DNA from: Candidatus Moraniibacteriota bacterium
GTDB lineage: Bacteria; Patescibacteriota; Minisyncoccia; Moranbacterales; GCA-2747515
Assembly (NCBI GenBank): GCA_038208115.1
Contig: JBBQZC010000004.1
Location: 10,530-74,529, forward strand
Length of the DNA stretch: 64,000 bases
Direction: 5' to 3'
The stretch's first letter is position 1. Each line of letters starts with the position of its first letter. The translations under genes and the position numbers were made by a program. Below the pieces are notes generated by a model that ran no database searches, was not told where the DNA came from, and saw only the letters and a list, made by a program, of their open reading frames with translations. Shown here in pieces: positions 11,680 to 57,028 of the stretch.

Positions 11680-12699
11680 TTATTTCTTTGATGCAATAAA
11701 ACCAATGCCGAATTTTTCGAACCACATGGCAAAATCCGAATTTACCCTTCGTTTTTGAATATATCTTCTTTTTTTGAGTATTATAAACATATTATACACC
11801 ACATCTGTAAATCCTTTCACTGTCACGATAAGCAAATCCCAAGTGCCGACATTGTTTTGAAAACGATTTACTATGCCCTTTCCTCTGAGTGCCAGCACGA
11901 GCAAATACGGATACCGTAGTACAGAATAAAACAACGCTTTGAGGCAATATATATGAGGATAATTTTTGATGATATTGTAATAAAGATTTCTATTGGTATG
12001 AAATGCGATAAATTTGGAGTATCCACCTGATGTCGCATTTTTGTGATGATATACTACCGATAGTGGGTTGTAAACGCACTGCCATCCACGCAACCGTGCA
12101 CGCCACCCCATATCCAGATCCTCGAGATAATATGCGTAGCTCTCATCAAAATACATCCCATCTTGTTTAATATCGTTTAATAATTCCACACTAAAAGCAG
12201 CCGCAGCTCCAGCAGGACAAAAAACTTCACATCGCTCATTACCCTTGTCAGATGACTCATGTAACAATCGATTGACAGCCAAACCGTCTTTTGTGATGAT
12301 GAGTCCTGCCGAATCAAACTGATCCCTATGCGTGTGAAAAAGGATCTTTGGTGCGACCATGCCAATTTTTTTTTCTACATTAATTTCAGCAACTATCTCT
12401 CGGATAAAATGTTCATCCACTTCCGTATCATTGTTGAGCAAGATGACATTTTCACATCCATCATCGATTGCACGCTGTATCCCGACGTTATTTGCCTTAC
12501 AAAAACCAGAATTATACCCCATCTCGATCAATATCACATTATCATATGCATCACGGACAAGTTCGATCGATCCATCTGTAGATCCATTATCCACCACAAA
12601 GATTACATGCTCACACGGCTCTGCATCACGCAATGACCGTAGACATTTATTCAAAAGGTCTTTTCTATTATAGTTGACGATTATTATTGCGTTTTTCAT
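11680..12699 (-). CDS. family 2 glycosyltransferase
   Basis: 'IIVNYNRKDLLNKCLRSL...VVDNGSTDGS' and a 'DxD'-region typical of the GT-A fold. Confidence 0.8.
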   Translation of the reverse strand: MKNAIIIVNYNRKDLLNKCLRSLRDAEPCEHVIFVVDNGSTDGSIELVRDAYDNVILIEMGYNSGFCKANNVGIQRAIDDGCENVILLNNDTEVDEHFIREIVAEINVEKKIGMVAPKILFHTHRDQFDSAGLIITKDGLAVNRLLHESSDKGNERCEVFCPAGAAAAFSVELLNDIKQDGMYFDESYAYYLEDLDMGWRARLRGWQCVYNPLSVVYHHKNATSGGYSKFIAFHTNRNLYYNIIKNYPHIYCLKALFYSVLRYPYLLVLALRGKGIVNRFQNNVGTWDLLIVTVKGFTDVVYNMFIILKKRRYIQKRRVNSDFAMWFEKFGIGFIASKK

Positions 12700-39791: not shown

Positions 39792-42700
39792 TTATGCTAT
39801 CAGTGATGTGTTTTTACGTTCAAGTTTACCCCATCCGACGAATATGCCTTTGATTGCGACAAATACGGTTTTCATTGCAACATAATACATCAATTGACGA
39901 TAAAAAAATCGTTGAAAAATAATCCAAATGAGTAAAGACCAGTCTTCACGTTCTCGTTCAAGTGTAAATGCAATGATCGATGAAAAAATGTCAATCATCA
40001 AAAACAATATGTAATATACAAATATATAGCGAAATGTGTACATAAGAGAATAATCCATCTGATGTATATGCTGTTGCCACAGTGCCCAGCTCACTGAAAT
40101 GATCAACGCAAGATCAACAATTGGTGCAATAATCTGAAAAAATAATTGAAATACAAAAATGTTTGGCAAAGCAAAAAATCCCAATGCACCATATCGTGGA
40201 CGGAAAAAAACCGCTTTATGTTTCCATGCTGTTTGCAGTGTGCCATACATCCATCGAAACCGCTGTTTGACGAAGCCAGCAATGGTATCAGGCGCTTCCG
40301 TATATGCAATCGCTTCATCATCATACACAACTTTATATCCATTTTTGATGATTGAAAATGTAAGATCAGCATCTTCTGCTAAAGTATCACTCGAAAACCC
40401 TCCTACAGACACAACCACCTCTCGACGCCATGCGCCAACCGCACCAGGCACAACTGAAATCGCATTGATAATATCGACAGCACGTCTCTCTAAATTTTGA
40501 CTTGTGATGTATTCCAATGCTTGTAATTTTGTTAATATATTTACTTTATTTCCCACTTTGGTATTTCCCGCGACCGCGCCCACACGTGAGTCAGCTAAAT
40601 CACGAATGAGCATTTTAATTGTATCTTTTGTAAAAAGTGTATCCGCATCGAGCGCTACAAAAAATTCAGAAGATGATTGTGTAATCCCAAAATTCAATGC
40701 GCTTGCTTTTCCTCCATTCTCTTTGGTGAATATACTCACTTTATCATTTGCACAATATTTGTGATTAAGTAAATAATATGTATTGTCAGTAGAACCATCA
40801 TCAACAATAATAATGCGAAAATTTCCATAATCTGAGTCAAGGAGAGAGTCTATGGTTCGTATTATCACATCCTCTTCATTCCATGCAGGAACGATTACAT
40901 CAACAGATGGTTCAAATTCCGTTTGATATACACATGTCTTGCCATAACGACATCTGCCAGATTGTATAAGTGCTAGAACTATGATGAATAGTAGTCTCCC
41001 TATCCCCAAAAATATGCCAACTGTAAAAATGAAATAAAAAATATTCATTAAAATATATGTCAACGAGAATGTTATATCGTTGATTCGCATAGCCAATTGA
41101 TCTTGTGAAACAACAGGTGGCATAATTGTATCGTGTGACACACCGACTAATTCTGAAATTGTCACAAACTCATAGCCTTTTTGTTTGAGTGTATCAATAA
41201 TTATTGGAAGTGCATCCACAGTTTGATCGCGATTTCCTCCAGAGTCATGTAATAACACAATATTACCCTCTCCACTTTCAGCTCCATTTACAACATTCGA
41301 CACAATTTCTTCAGTACCGGGTTGTGCCCAATCCGTCGGATCTATATGCATACCGACCGTATAATATCCTTGATTATTCGCAAATAGTAATGATCCAATC
41401 TGTTCTAAAGTTTCAGGCTCGACATCTTCTGCATATGGCGGTCGAAACAAAATTGTTTGTCTTCCGATCATTCCTTCCAACATTTTTTGAAATCCATTGA
41501 GTTCAAGAAAAAATTGTTTTTTGGAAATATTATTAATATTTGGATGTGTAAATGTATGGCTACCAATCTCATGCCCTTCCGCATTGATCCGCTTTATAAT
41601 ACGAGGGTATTTATCCGCACTCAATCCGATTGTAAAAAAAGTTGCATGAATATTCTTTTGGTTTAAGATATCTAAAATCAGATCAGTATATTTTGCATCA
41701 GGACCATCGTCAAAAGTAAGTGCTATTTTTTTACTGTCCTCACCACCAAATCTCTCAATTCTATACGATGACGGATATTTCACAATTGACGCATCCGTGA
41801 TAACTCCATTGACATCATCGTATATCACATTTCGCACACCATCTATCGGCGTATGTTTGATTTTAAGCACTTCTCCCACACCATCATAAGTTACCACATC
41901 CCCATGAGGAATTACTGTGATCATATCAGCAACAAATTTGTCGAGATGATCTCGATACGCCATCACATGCCACAAAGAAGAGTCTTCTCCACCCATGCGC
42001 CACAACGCATATCCCAGAGGTCGATATTGTCTCACTGCAGCGATTTGATCAAAAACAGTCACCGCATCTAAAAACCACACATGGTGGATAATATTTTTTT
42101 CATCGCGATACGAAAATGTTTCGTTTTGACTTTGATGATCCATTTGCAAAGTTACACGTGCATCTATAGCAGTCATTAGTGCCTCTTGTGTAGTGATGCT
42201 CATTCCGTTCATAGTATCTTCTATCCAATCATAACCGTAGTTACCATACGCGATCACGATTTTTTGTGGTGGAACTTGTGAGAATCGTTGTGTAATACCC
42301 GCGACAAACCAATCGCGTGATGCGATTGGTCCAGAAGCAGTAGCCTGAACCGTATGCTCATCATACGCCATCAAAACCAAAAAATCGACATATTGGGCCA
42401 ATATGCGTGCATCAAATGAATCATCAATTAGCGGTATGCTTTGAGAAACTTCCAGTCCTTCCTGTGAAAAAACTGCATATAGCTCTTTCATATATAAAAT
42501 AAGATTTGCTTGACTCGTATCTGGGATAGATTCATAATCGATGTTTACACCATCAAACCCATTTGTCTTTACGTAATCCAAAATACTTTGAATATTATGA
42601 CTCCGCGCAGTCTGATCTTGAAGCATATTTACCACCATTTCACTATCCCAATTTTGCGTGGTTGAATTGTAATTATTGATAAGTGGCGCAATTTTGAGTG

Positions 42701-43172
42701 GACTTCCATTACTGCGTATAAAATCCAATGCTTTTTTTTGTGCTTCTTCATCGTCAAGTATTATCGATCCATCTGCTCCTGATAAATGTAACCACTCAGG
42801 CATCAATTCATCGATCGATCGAATATTATTTTGCAAAGAGTTAAAACTCTCATCATCCCAATTTACATAAAATGCGATTGATTGCGAACGATACGTTCCA
42901 ATAGAATCCACAGATTGTATAGGTGTCTTTTGTGATCCAATCTGTACATCTGATGCAACCTGGATTGGCGTCACATTTGAATTTTCTGATATTGGTTGCA
43001 ATTTCTGTGGCAAAACAATCGGTGGTTCCCCCAGTAATTGTGTCTCATGGTAAACAGTTTTCACTGTAAAGCCAAAAAAACCGACTACTATAAGAATAAT
43101 TATTATAGTCGGCCACTTAACCCACAACCATCTTTTCTTAGTTGCATCATAAAATATCGGTGTTTGCGTCAT
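39792..43172 (-). CDS. tri-domain exopolysaccharide enzyme: GH18-like domain + CE4 (NodB) polysaccharide deacetylase + processive GT2 synthase (PgaB/PgaC- or IcaA/IcaB-like fusion)
   Basis: N-terminal TM, then 'FDGVNIDYES' (GH18 DxDxE-like). 'IALTFDDGPDAKYT...HEIGSHTFTHP' is the CE4 domain. 'DVIVPAWNEEDVI...IIVDDGSTDNT', 'LDADT' and 'QRFRWMYG' (QxxRW) mark the GT2 domain, which is followed by C-terminal TM helices. Confidence 0.7.
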   Translation of the reverse strand: MTQTPIFYDATKKRWLWVKWPTIIIILIVVGFFGFTVKTVYHETQLLGEPPIVLPQKLQPISENSNVTPIQVASDVQIGSQKTPIQSVDSIGTYRSQSIAFYVNWDDESFNSLQNNIRSIDELMPEWLHLSGADGSIILDDEEAQKKALDFIRSNGSPLKIAPLINNYNSTTQNWDSEMVVNMLQDQTARSHNIQSILDYVKTNGFDGVNIDYESIPDTSQANLILYMKELYAVFSQEGLEVSQSIPLIDDSFDARILAQYVDFLVLMAYDEHTVQATASGPIASRDWFVAGITQRFSQVPPQKIVIAYGNYGYDWIEDTMNGMSITTQEALMTAIDARVTLQMDHQSQNETFSYRDEKNIIHHVWFLDAVTVFDQIAAVRQYRPLGYALWRMGGEDSSLWHVMAYRDHLDKFVADMITVIPHGDVVTYDGVGEVLKIKHTPIDGVRNVIYDDVNGVITDASIVKYPSSYRIERFGGEDSKKIALTFDDGPDAKYTDLILDILNQKNIHATFFTIGLSADKYPRIIKRINAEGHEIGSHTFTHPNINNISKKQFFLELNGFQKMLEGMIGRQTILFRPPYAEDVEPETLEQIGSLLFANNQGYYTVGMHIDPTDWAQPGTEEIVSNVVNGAESGEGNIVLLHDSGGNRDQTVDALPIIIDTLKQKGYEFVTISELVGVSHDTIMPPVVSQDQLAMRINDITFSLTYILMNIFYFIFTVGIFLGIGRLLFIIVLALIQSGRCRYGKTCVYQTEFEPSVDVIVPAWNEEDVIIRTIDSLLDSDYGNFRIIIVDDGSTDNTYYLLNHKYCANDKVSIFTKENGGKASALNFGITQSSSEFFVALDADTLFTKDTIKMLIRDLADSRVGAVAGNTKVGNKVNILTKLQALEYITSQNLERRAVDIINAISVVPGAVGAWRREVVVSVGGFSSDTLAEDADLTFSIIKNGYKVVYDDEAIAYTEAPDTIAGFVKQRFRWMYGTLQTAWKHKAVFFRPRYGALGFFALPNIFVFQLFFQIIAPIVDLALIISVSWALWQQHIHQMDYSLMYTFRYIFVYYILFLMIDIFSSIIAFTLEREREDWSLLIWIIFQRFFYRQLMYYVAMKTVFVAIKGIFVGWGKLERKNTSLIA

Positions 43173-47184: not shown

Positions 47185-48129
47185 TTATATATCCAATGCA
47201 TCACATACTTTATCATATGCTTGTATCATATGTCCTTCAGTCATACCACGACCATCATCATGGTCACTATGATATATAGTCATCAAATGCCCAAAATCCC
47301 CAGCAATAAAAAATATCTTTTCATACCACTCTTCCATATGCACGATTGGGAAGCCCATTTTCAGAATGTTTTTATCACTAATTTTTTTCGCGATACCATT
47401 CCCCACAGAATCTATCACAATAATTTGCTGTGCCTGCATCATGACACTTTCATACACTTTCTCAAATTCACGATATCCATGCCCCCAATATATACCCTCA
47501 TCGTATGATAATTCTTCATTTGCCGCAAAAACGTATAGTGTGTGTTTTAATGATTTGGGATGTTCTTTTATAAGATGCATCATGATAGAAACTCCAGAAG
47601 CATTATCGACTGCACCCATTTTAATGCTATCGTAATGTGCAAAACAAATTTTCGTAGGGTTGATTACGTTTCCCACAAGAATATGCACTGATCGATGTTT
47701 TATGCGCTCTACATCAACCTGCCCCTGTACATGATCTGCGTCAATAATCTTATGCATTGACGTAGGTGTTACTGCAATAGATGGTACATGATAATATACC
47801 GGTAATGAGATTGCAGTACATTGCGGGTTAAAATTGATGTGTGCAGATTGATCTAGTTTTGCGTCAAAATACAATGAACTAATGATATGATCCTTGCCAC
47901 TTATCTTTCCACTTACGAAACAACTTCCTTCACATACCATCGATTCTTCATCGACAATAAGTGATGCCTGTTTTACCAAGGGAATATCCACAGTAAATTC
48001 TTCTGTAAAAAATGGGATGCCTGCATCACGCAAAAATGTGATGAGATATTCCGCTGTTTTCTGTTCACCCTCCAATTGTCTTGGCGAAAAAGAAATAATC
48101 TCTTGTACTGTTTCGATAAAATTTTTCAT
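47185..48129 (-). CDS. M28-family aminopeptidase
   Basis: 'FAHYDSIKMGAVDNASGVSIMM' (HxD and DNxSG metal ligands) and 'FAANEELSYDEG' (EE). Confidence 0.65.
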   Translation of the reverse strand: MKNFIETVQEIISFSPRQLEGEQKTAEYLITFLRDAGIPFFTEEFTVDIPLVKQASLIVDEESMVCEGSCFVSGKISGKDHIISSLYFDAKLDQSAHINFNPQCTAISLPVYYHVPSIAVTPTSMHKIIDADHVQGQVDVERIKHRSVHILVGNVINPTKICFAHYDSIKMGAVDNASGVSIMMHLIKEHPKSLKHTLYVFAANEELSYDEGIYWGHGYREFEKVYESVMMQAQQIIVIDSVGNGIAKKISDKNILKMGFPIVHMEEWYEKIFFIAGDFGHLMTIYHSDHDDGRGMTEGHMIQAYDKVCDALDI

Positions 48130-48244: not shown

Positions 48245-49036
48245 TCATACTATTGCTCCAAAGATTGCATCGCAGTCGATCACATGATGATTGTGATGAC
48301 CATCCTGTGGAAAATACTGCATTCCATCAACCCAGGGTAATGGCACGATTAGTGGTGCAATACCCAGTTCTGTGACAATGCGCTGCCAAGCCGGATCAAA
48401 GACGTCATGCGTAAACGCAAGGTCACTTTTCTTTGCGGCACCATTGTGATAATTATCCGAATGAAAATCATCCACTAATACACCATGCACAAGAAACATC
48501 GACAGAAATGGATAATAATAATCATGACTGCTACCAAGAGATTTCAAGTATACGGACAAATCTTGTCGAATCGGATCGATAAGAAAAATATCCTGCAGAT
48601 CATGATGATAATCAACCAATGATTGACCATCCTTCAAACAAATCGCCGACATCGGCTTACCATCAATCTTGCTAACATCAATCCCATTACTCTTAGTGAG
48701 CTTCCAACCACCCTTACGACCTTTACCAGCACAATGAAACTGATGTACCAGGCTGCGTTTATACGGTGATGCAGCCACAAATCGATCCTCCGTAAATTCG
48801 ATCCATACAGGTATCAAATCTGCGGAGTGTGCAATGTTTTGAAAAACGATATCCTCATAACGACACGTTGCGATCTGCCTCGCAAAAAATGCCAATGGGC
48901 CACTTACACAGAATTCTGGCAAAATAATTTTATTCTCATTGCGCCATACATCGATTTGGGCAATGAGATCACGATCATTTTGCCGTCTCACTAACTCCTT
49001 TTGTGCCTCTTGCGCTGTAAAATACATTTGTACCAT
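48245..49036 (-). CDS. hypothetical protein (His-rich C-terminus, no recognised domain)
   Basis: 263-aa intact ORF ending 'QDGHHNHHVIDCD'. Confidence 0.4.
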   Translation of the reverse strand: MVQMYFTAQEAQKELVRRQNDRDLIAQIDVWRNENKIILPEFCVSGPLAFFARQIATCRYEDIVFQNIAHSADLIPVWIEFTEDRFVAASPYKRSLVHQFHCAGKGRKGGWKLTKSNGIDVSKIDGKPMSAICLKDGQSLVDYHHDLQDIFLIDPIRQDLSVYLKSLGSSHDYYYPFLSMFLVHGVLVDDFHSDNYHNGAAKKSDLAFTHDVFDPAWQRIVTELGIAPLIVPLPWVDGMQYFPQDGHHNHHVIDCDAIFGAIV

Positions 49037-49144
49037 CTCATTCTCCTGTTTTTGTGTGATGAACAGTGATGCCTCAATTAAAGAACTAAAAAACCGATCT
49101 ACACGGAGACCGGTTTATTTTTGCTAACTTCTTTTTTTATCACT

Positions 49145-49437
49145 TATCAGAATTTCGCAAAAACAAAACGATCTCCACTTATAAAGTAGAACGTAAACAG
49201 AATCATATACCACATTGTGTTTCTGCTGTTTTGCATGATTGTGCATTTAAAAAATAAACTGCGATAATGTCCTCTCAAAAGAACAAAAAACGGTCCTTGA
49301 CGAGACCGATTCATTCTTGCTTACTAAAAATATTTTATATTATCAGAATTTTGCAAAAACAAAACGATCTCTACTTATAAAGTAGAACGTAAACAGAATC
49401 ATATACCACATTGTGTTTCTGCTGTTTTGCATGATTG
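49145..49437. repeat. pair of 97-bp direct repeats (49145-49241 and 49341-49437, 2 mismatches)
   Basis: 'tatcagaattt[c/t]gcaaaaacaaaacgatctc[c/t]acttataaagtagaacgtaaacagaatcatataccacattgtgtttctgctgttttgcatgattg' occurs twice. Each copy is preceded by a short GC hairpin (49092-49123 and 49291-49308). Contains TTGCAA-N18-TATAAA. Confidence 0.8.
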
Positions 49438-49572
49438 CAAATTTATACTATAAACATTTTCATTATAAATTATTCATTTAATTTGTCAATACATAAAGCA
49501 ATACGTATAAAAAAGATAATGGGATTATTTTTGGCTTTATATAATTTAGATACTAATTGCAAAAGAATGTCG

Positions 49573-56929: not shown

Positions 56930-56939
56930 CGGAGAGGGA

Positions 56940-57028
56940 GGGATTCGAACCCTCGGACCGGTTTGACCCAGTCAACTGATTTCGAGTCAGTCCCATTCGA
57001 CCTCTCTGGCACCTCTCCATTTATTCAA
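56940..57028 (-). tRNA. tRNA-Ser (anticodon CGA)
   Basis: Reverse complement gives GGAGAGG acceptor stem, anticodon stem ACTGA/TCAGT with loop CTCGAAA, long variable arm, T-arm GAGGG-TTCGAAT-CCCTC and discriminator G. CCA is not encoded. Confidence 0.85.

Follow-up and report, generated by a model that had tools for sequence, protein, structure and literature searches.

What is the function of two nearly identical elements that lie close together in a noncoding gap? The gap spans 536 bp (49037-49572, between the flanking ORFs) of the window, i.e., the whole 64-kb (64,000-nt) stretch of DNA analyzed here. Its two 97-nt copies, at 49145-49241 and 49341-49437, differ only at positions 49156/49352 and 49176/49372. 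These observations confirm an earlier note on the locus, and we share its view that function underlies the near-identity of the copies and that the element is transcribed as a structured RNA. However, the note read the element on the plus strand, whereas the genes on both sides of the gap lie on the minus strand. The gap is most likely the 5′ leader of a minus-strand operon consisting of the genes at 48245-49036 and 47185-48129. We consider it likely that this leader carries tandem ribosome-mediated attenuators that sense the supply of aromatic aminoacyl-tRNAs ahead of the two-gene operon.

The full repeat is a tandem direct repeat with a period of 196 nt (49089-49259 and 49285-49455, 82% identical over 171 nt), and each 196-nt unit comprises a near-identical core and a diverged linker and hairpin. 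The gap indeed has no ORF of 60 aa or more, but the core coincides almost exactly with one ATG-to-TGA frame of 29 codons on the minus strand. Hairpins with T/A-rich runs, previously described in front of each element, are present at 49091-49116 and 49291-49308. On the minus strand, however, each comes after the element, and what had been described as a GC hairpin with a T-rich stretch is each module's terminator, read from the wrong strand. A scan for terminator-like sites found 3, compared with 0.3 expected by chance. A plus-strand TTGCAA-N18-TATAAA motif had been assigned to each copy, but it occurs in copy 2 only, with a 19-nt spacer; copy 1 has TTCGCA instead, because one of the two mismatches falls inside the motif. 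Tandem promoters are therefore not supported, since the motif is confined to one copy and fails the −10 criterion. The promoter scan called no plus-strand promoter within the repeat, and no plus-strand hairpin or terminator was found downstream of copy 2.

The strand follows from the conserved base pairs described below. Many of them are G·U pairs, which would become A·C mismatches on the plus strand, and therefore the functional strand is the minus strand. The T-tracts, a promoter with 12/12 consensus matches and the downstream gene all favor the same strand. Folding energy does not discriminate between the strands, as the plus strand folds about equally well (z = −3.15). Despite this and the single TTGCAA-N19-TATAAA copy, it is extremely unlikely that the locus represents plus-strand small-RNA genes or tandem promoters, a mobile-element footprint or a recent neutral duplication. 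No inverted repeats flank the repeat unit, and the marks of a MITE (terminal inverted repeats, target duplication, dispersed copies) were not found. Only two copies, adjacent to each other, occur in the 64-kb window, and in many lineages the element occupies the syntenic position, upstream of the orthologous gene. A recent neutral duplication is excluded because the duplication is older than the split from the lineage of a related locus, L001. The small-RNA gene was the closest of the three ideas in the note, since a short terminated transcript would be expected from each module, although the plus strand was the wrong one.

From 5′ to 3′ on the minus strand, the gap contains a promoter, module 2 (distal), a stem-loop followed by T6, module 1 (proximal), a second stem-loop followed by T6, AGGAGA, and the ATG at 49036. 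The parts, with the two genes that follow, are:

49462-49489, minus strand: sigma-70-type leader promoter, −35 TTGACA (49489-49484), 16-nt spacer, −10 TATAAT (49467-49462); 12/12 consensus matches
49441-49457, minus strand: small hairpin P0 (GUUUA..UAAAU), AUGUUUAUAGUAUAAAU, directly after the −10 box; also readable as a 4-codon mini-ORF
49343-49432, minus strand: distal leader ORF, MQNSRNTMWYMILFTFYFISRDRFVFAKF, 29 codons plus TGA; approximately copy 2 of the earlier note
49392-49426, minus strand: distal hairpin P1 (AGCAGAA/UUCUGUU), within the ORF; candidate RNA polymerase pause hairpin
49380-49390, minus strand: distal region 1, ACGUUCUACUU, codons T15 F16 Y17 F18; forms the anti-antiterminator P2 by pairing with the first part of region 2
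49353-49372, minus strand: distal region 2, antiterminator 5′ arm, AGAGAUCGUUUUGUUUUUGC; ORF codons 21-27
49301-49320, minus strand: distal region 3, antiterminator 3′ arm and terminator 5′ arm, GCAAGAAUGAAUCGGUCUCG
49276-49308, minus strand: distal intrinsic terminator; stem-loop 49308-49291, U6 tract, conserved GUUCUUU tail
49147-49236, minus strand: proximal leader ORF, MQNSRNTMWYMILFTFYFISGDRFVFAKF, 29 codons plus TGA; approximately copy 1 of the earlier note
49184-49194, minus strand: proximal region 1, codons T15-F18
49157-49176, minus strand: proximal region 2, antiterminator 5′ arm, GGAGAUCGUUUUGUUUUUGC; 2:3 helix −26.5 kcal/mol
49105-49124, minus strand: proximal region 3, antiterminator 3′ arm and terminator 5′ arm, GCAAAAAUAAACCGGUCUCC
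49080-49116, minus strand: proximal intrinsic terminator; stem-loop 49116-49091, U6 tract, AGUUCUUU tail
49042-49047, minus strand: Shine-Dalgarno (SD) sequence AGGAGA of the regulated gene; one of 3 SD-like sites upstream of 44 window ORFs
48245-49036, minus strand: first regulated gene, encoding 263 aa; the protein has a Rossmann fold of the class I aaRS/HUP-like type
47185-48129, minus strand: second regulated gene, encoding an M28-like protein (metallopeptidase family) of 314 aa; accompanies the 263-aa gene in every case

The homologous loci carry TTGACA-17-TATAAT, TACAAT or TAAAAT at the place equivalent to the leader promoter. P0 is kept in L001, L004, L008 and L132, and in proximal modules without a promoter of their own its GUUUA..UAAAU is retained, whereas the AUG is absent. 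P1, possibly a pause hairpin, has a counterpart of another sequence (GCAAAAU/AUUUUGC) at the same position in L127. The intrinsic terminator between leader ORF and first structural gene, represented in the window by the two minus-strand stem-loops with U6, is conserved at all loci. Within the window, the exact GUUCUUU tail motif occurs only at the two attenuators. It might be a general terminator tail or an anti-SD sequence, but in the window it is specific to these leaders.

Each module can form mutually exclusive pairings. The 20-nt stretch (G/A)GAGAUCGUUUUGUUUUUGC can pair with GCAA(A/G)AAU(A/G)AA(C/U)CGGUCUC, the 3′ half of which doubles as the terminator 5′ arm. In module 1 this antiterminator is the minimum-free-energy fold. 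The sub-fold energies are about −7 kcal/mol for 1:2, −23 to −26.5 kcal/mol for 2:3 and −12 to −14 kcal/mol for 3:4, and RNAalifold, run unguided, returned 1:2 (P2) and 3:4 (the terminator). In the alignment, the antiterminator is paired in 88% of cells, compared with 38-58% when its 3′ partner is slid by 1-3 columns, and the terminator in 94%, compared with 15-56%. For P2 and the terminator together the values are 94.7% and 30-55%, and 0 of 500 shuffles reached the observed value.

The covariation analysis suggested in the note thus found the helices paired in 88-94.7% of cells, but within the core family it yielded only 1-3 double changes per helix, the arms being so conserved that covariation is limited. 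The double changes include C-G to U-A and G-C to A-U, and P2 has two pairs with double changes (C-G to U-A and U·G to C-G). The diverged modules are a stronger structural argument than the core-family covariation: L136, the second modules of L004 and L127, and L134, L135 and L139 have other arm sequences in regions 2-4 and keep all three pairings.

These pairings suggest how each module would work. Each of the two complete modules behind the one strong promoter follows the classical four-region plan. Region 1, with the F16-Y17-F18 codons, pairs with the first part of region 2. The final third of the ORF makes up region 2, which can alternatively form 19 bp with region 3 as an antiterminator; otherwise region 3 pairs with region 4 as a U-tailed intrinsic terminator, and the ORF stop lies between regions 2 and 3. 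Translation of the ORF, ribosome stalling and the direction of the response are predicted from this arrangement. When charged Phe-, Tyr- and Trp-tRNAs are plentiful, the ribosome would cross region 2 and reach the stop, the terminator would form and transcription would end. When charged aromatic tRNAs are scarce, the ribosome would stall at W9, Y10, F14, F16, Y17 or F18 and mask region 1, leaving region 2 free to form the antiterminator and allowing RNA polymerase to read through. With two modules in series the termination decisions would multiply, which would give a lower basal leak and a sharper response. Because 2:3 far exceeds 1:2 in stability, the state without translation may read through rather than terminate.

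The leader ORF is open through region 2 and closed before region 3 in 16/16 modules, with a length of 29-44 codons; in every module, from the sequences as read, the stop lies 4-60 nt past region 2. The other two frames contain stops in most modules, and in dinucleotide shuffles the frame stays open in a fraction of only 0.10-0.34 per module. The ORFs of homologues differ in length by whole codons. In L136 the frame is shifted by 1 nt relative to the homologous nucleotides, which alters the peptide over region 2, and the ORF is still open, suggesting selection on "an ORF that crosses region 2" and not on the peptide. The first L127 module starts with GTG instead of ATG. No SD sequence precedes the leader ORF, but this is not an objection because SD sites are rare in these genomes: an SD-like motif was found for 3/44 window ORFs and 5/24 called genes of L137.

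The ORFs are rich in aromatic codons. In the distal ORF, 9/29 codons encode Phe, Tyr or Trp (P<0.001, dinucleotide shuffles), and the proximal peptide differs from the distal one by G for R21, the other nucleotide difference being synonymous. Phe, Tyr and Trp make up 23-38% of the 12 core peptides, compared with 10.2% in the window proteins (12,628 residues; binomial P between 7e-5 and 3e-2), and in-frame aromatic codons exceeded the shuffles at P≤0.01 in 9/11 core modules. No significant enrichment was found in the most distant modules, L134, L135 and L139, or in the Ile/Val-rich second module of L127. The aromatic codons are scattered and do not form a run, and F24 and F26 sit within region 2.

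In total, 16 modules were found in about 11 metagenomic lineages. The loci were taken from contigs carrying relatives of the 263-aa protein, except that L127 came from a genome scan and L129/L131 from a metagenome scan; the second modules of L004 and L127 came from the covariance-model search and L139 from a more distant relative of the protein. The 263-aa protein has few close relatives, all in metagenome assemblies, and a scan of genome contigs with it gave no relative. Among the listed degenerate-pattern matches on genome contigs only L127 was genuine, and several Bacillaceae matches were chance hits inside genes; the metagenome pattern scan gave two true loci, near-duplicates of each other, and one false one. 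The covariance model recovered every module and only the two copies in the window, whereas unrelated sequence totalling about 715 kb gave no match at E≤1. The window LigA is 75% identical to the LigA of the L127 contig, and its nearest named relatives are Candidatus Moranbacteria/Moraniibacteriota; the cluster containing the TopA of L129 likewise carries the name Moranbacteria.

All modules share one layout, although the arm sequences are sometimes wholly different. The order is a promoter or upstream read-through, the short ORF, a hairpin over or beside the aromatic cluster, the antiterminator 5′ arm inside the ORF, the stop, region 3, the U-tailed terminator, and a first gene with a strong SD sequence. 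The leader peptides of the related loci are:

L132: MQNNRTAKWYTFLFAFYFMGRDRFVFAKF
L002: MQNGRTTKWYFFLFSFYFRSRDRFVFVSY
L004: MQNNRMVSEYLFWFSLYFSNRDRFVFALYRT
L008: MQQNSKTIANIMILFWLYFTNRDRFVFAKF
L127: (V)HINGAKFWYYFAFYFTSRDRFVFAQIYT
L129: MIQKTAKTLYFYFYFWFMTRDRFVFAEKRIN
L136: MKTQQVIYSGFLFMFWLYDQIGFGLRKMYILP
L004, second module: MTQRTNINIVYTFYYFWFMPGGRFIFVRKV
L127, second module: MTIYSTQKFYSVVVSIIIMLTARSQFVFAGRE
L134: MNKTYNQFNHHNLSLAGREWLFLS
L135: MSLQSQISPRNLFWYHIPIHSGANLSFLFCVSCENINTLI
L139: MNDLITNNSIQNKLHYLWKFIKAQYLGCSYVFKNATIYQLKECE

The conservation of the arm raises the question of whether the nucleotides or the peptide are selected. Across 11 modules, CGUUUUGUUUUUG shows no change, synonymous sites included, and therefore part of the conservation is at the RNA level; the apparent "RDRFVF" peptide may be a by-product of it. 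Such an invariant element, together with P0 and P1 as conserved structures upstream of and inside the ORF, would also suit a switch in which the ORF is incidental and a small-molecule riboswitch, an RNA-binding protein or an uncharged tRNA acting at P0, P1 or P2 sets the same terminator/antiterminator choice. One module lacks an ATG, and L134, the most distant locus, has a Trp_repressor-family gene directly upstream, which would fit this reading as well. We nevertheless regard it as unlikely. The frame remains open through region 2 in all 16 modules, even those of unrelated sequence, whereas L129, L136, L134, L135 and L139 lack conserved P0 and P1 elements. No family of Rfam 15 matched the gap at gathering thresholds and nothing usable appeared at E≤10; even in the best case, no gap match reached one third of the gathering score of its family. 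On reading the leaders, with Rfam as the motif search, we noticed no T-box-like specifier or T-box sequence. Furthermore, the second leader of L127 has VVVSIII in place of the aromatic block of the first, and such a replacement of F/Y/W by V/I within one genome would not be predicted by a fixed ligand pocket.

Alternatively, the nascent peptide (e.g., ...RDRFVFA) might arrest the ribosome on a free ligand or antibiotic, as TnaC or ErmCL does, instead of at hungry codons. Ten core peptides share the same C-terminal sequence, R-D-R-F-V-F-A, two diverged modules carry related R-x-x-F-[VI]-F motifs, and the peptides, at 29-32 aa, are longer than classical leader peptides. But L136 retains the RNA helix through compensatory changes and loses the motif (DQIGFGLRK), and L134, L135 and L139 lack it too. 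The conservation of synonymous positions is what would be expected of an RNA arm. A stall within RDRFVF would cover region 2 and favor termination, so that the ligand would have to be a repressing signal. Taken together, these observations make an arrest peptide quite unlikely. We also considered a MifM-like membrane-insertion force sensor and rejected it, on our own reasoning that a peptide of 29 aa would not yet have left the exit tunnel.

A related possibility is that the conserved chassis (P0-P1-P2, the GAYCGUUUUGUUUUUG arm and the GUUCUUU tail) itself senses aromatic status, with the ORF as a bystander or carrier. This would amount to a new riboswitch or protein-binding RNA, or to RDRFVF arrest on free Phe/Tyr, and we give it only a small chance of being correct. 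The preferred reading remains attenuation by ribosomes that respond to charged aromatic tRNAs.

Which genes would these attenuators control? The 263-aa protein matched no Pfam or NCBIfam family, and its relatives make up about 800 clusters at 50% identity; for the M28-like protein, a phmmer search against the PDB returned nothing. The leader precedes the genes of these two proteins in the window and in L001, L002, L004, L008, L132, L136 and L139. In L127/L137 the same leader (112 bits) is followed by a 52-aa ORF and then by the genes for prephenate dehydrogenase, prephenate dehydratase-ACT and a class I aminotransferase, i.e., genes of Phe/Tyr biosynthesis. Other leader copies lie ahead of small ORFs lacking assigned function, and the ones that follow three of the leaders (123, 123 and 102 aa) show no relationship among themselves. 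Association with genes for the same amino acid is thus seen in L127/L137, whereas the targets in the window (the 263-aa protein and its M28-like partner) are not known to be connected with aromatic amino acids. As far as sequence can tell, the leader has every feature of leader-peptide attenuators apart from a gene association that is consistent across loci.

The gene order also bears on whether the small ORFs are independent genes, encoding RiPP precursors, membrane peptides or toxins behind leaky terminators, with the 263-aa and M28-like proteins as processing enzymes. Their products are hydrophobic, a layout of tandem precursors ahead of genes for a modifying enzyme and a peptidase is common, and the fold of the 263-aa protein resembles aaRS/cyclodipeptide-synthase. 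We consider this very unlikely, because the same leader stands ahead of tyrA-pheA-aminotransferase and of unrelated small ORFs, and because outside the RNA arm there is little conservation of the peptide. Nor would a compensated 19-bp antiterminator overlapping the 3′ end of the ORF be expected of a plain gene and its terminator. Attenuation therefore remains our preferred explanation of the small ORFs.

The predicted mechanism is a textbook one, following trpL/pheL logic, and the family itself is absent from Rfam. In trpL, region 1 carries the control codons, the 1:2, 2:3 and 3:4 pairings are mutually exclusive, and the stop lies between regions 2 and 3. The present leader shares the control codons in region 1, the exclusive pairings and the stop position. 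It differs from trpL in its very long 2:3 helix (19 bp), much stronger than 1:2, in the extra hairpin P1 in the ORF and in the conserved GUUCUUU tail after the U-tract. The E. coli pheL-pheA leader (Rfam RF01859, Phe_leader) has a short, Phe-codon-rich ORF of 15 aa with a run of Phe, is preceded by an SD sequence and has been described only from Gammaproteobacteria (Gurvich et al. 2010, PMC3082878). Like it, the present leader has a (candidate) pause hairpin and antiterminator and terminator hairpins with a U-run, and the L127 leader likewise stands ahead of a prephenate dehydratase gene. However, no homology to Phe_leader was detectable (17 bits compared with a gathering score of 55, E = 4.1). 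The leader peptides here are 29-32 aa long with scattered F/Y/W codons and no SD sequence before the ORF; the hosts are uncultured Moranbacteria-like members of the CPR, the modules are in tandem in the window, and they mostly lie ahead of genes lacking assigned function.

Attenuators and riboswitches are known in tandem, and more than one translation-sensitive attenuator in series is found in the Salmonella mgtCBR leader, where two different short ORFs read different signals (PMC3641672). Here the modules are paralogues whose cores are 98% identical, and the pair presumably reads the same signal twice. TnaC (PMC8429421) and the Erm leaders resemble the present case in that the translation status of a leader ORF sets downstream expression. 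They need a conserved peptide, however, whereas here the motif is dispensable in L136, L134, L135 and L139, with the RNA pairing kept.

The L001 locus, whose protein is 86% identical to that of the window, is also tandem and dates the duplication. Between the window and L001, the distal modules are 88% identical in linker and terminator and 90% in the core, and the proximal modules 82% and 92%, respectively. The distal and proximal paralogues are 60-68% identical in linker and terminator; in the core, they are 98% identical in the window and 88% in L001. These identities imply that the modules had already been duplicated when the two lineages separated. Gene conversion, added to purifying selection, best explains why the cores in the window are nearly identical.

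We found no paper linking CPR/Patescibacteria with leader-peptide attenuation. The present leaders add a family of putative leader-peptide attenuators from Moranbacteria-like Patescibacteria, a lineage for which the literature found describes no attenuator. Because these genomes mostly lack SD sites, translation-coupled attenuation would have to run without SD-led initiation. The family looks modular, as the same chassis carries an F/Y/W block (ahead of tyrA-pheA) or a V/I block, and codon blocks can therefore be compared with regulons. The tandem copies, whose cores have been homogenized in a single lineage, provide a natural case of possible tuning of dynamic range. If the chassis itself were the sensor, it would represent a CPR-specific sensing mechanism without a described counterpart. 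Finally, the leader provides a functional handle on the 263-aa family and its M28-like partner, both of which are predicted to be switched on under aromatic amino-acid starvation.

The sequence GUUCUUU follows the terminator U-tract and is invariant in every module of all related leaders. It is constant even in modules with unrelated stem sequences, such as L134 and L139, which are among the most diverged loci with this leader family. Within the window, the two attenuators are the only sites of the exact motif TTTTNGTTCTTT, and the tails lie at:

49276-49282, minus strand, GUUCUUU tail
49080-49086, minus strand, GUUCUUU tail

In some modules GUUCUUU pairs with AAGAAU of region 3, the shared antiterminator and terminator arm, giving a longer terminator stem. 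Such lengthening leaves some cases unexplained.

The promoter-proximal modules of the window and of the related loci L001, L004, L008, L132 and L137 open with AUGUU(U/A), about 5 nt past the -10 box. The segment in the window is:

49441-49457, minus strand, AUGUU(U/A) mini-ORF/hairpin segment

Read as a mini-ORF, this start encodes 2-4 sense codons and ends just ahead of the leader ORF (variants MFIV*, MLVI*, MFSV*, MFVN* and ML*), and its AUG may serve for leaderless initiation. A GUUUA..UAAAU hairpin, which is retained in the promoter-less proximal modules, is formed by these bases as well.

A strong Shine-Dalgarno motif precedes the first gene behind each attenuator, unlike most genes of the window and L137, which have none (the motif is present in only 3 of 44 and 5 of 24 genes, respectively). 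Nearly all long ORFs of the window (1-64000) are carried by the minus strand. Its other features include:

39792-43172, minus strand, 1126-aa fusion protein with GH18, polysaccharide deacetylase and family 2 glycosyltransferase (chitin-synthase-like) domains
56930-57018, minus strand, tRNA with a long variable arm

Further leaders of the family were found in two related loci:

L127 7690-7880 (L137 about 11970-12170), second, diverged leader with its own promoter
L004 2240-2395, second attenuator, intra-operon, between an M28-like gene and a 123-aa ORF

The L127 leader ORF is Ile/Val-rich (VVVSIIIML) and is followed by two uncharacterised ORFs of 102 and 59 aa; close by, the opposite strand carries a gene for a branched-chain/D-amino-acid aminotransferase. 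The ORF of the L004 attenuator is MTQRTNINIVYTFYYFWFMPGGRFIFVRKV. In L134, whose leader belongs to the most distant 263-aa homologue, a Trp_repressor-family gene (143-448; PF01371, E = 9e-17) lies immediately upstream of the leader.

The 177-kb contig of L127/L137 (DYDB01000002.1 = JAEMOL010000003.1) is titled Micavibrio sp. Its LigA is 75% identical to the window's LigA, and the nearest named relatives of the window LigA are Candidatus Moranbacteria; this label looks wrong.

The two leader cores of the window (49147-49432) are 98% identical to each other, compared with only 88% in L001, whereas the flanks of the tandem copies keep their orthology between the window and L001, distal to distal and proximal to proximal. 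On sequence comparison, this combination suggests that the tandem copies have undergone gene conversion with each other in the lineage of the window.
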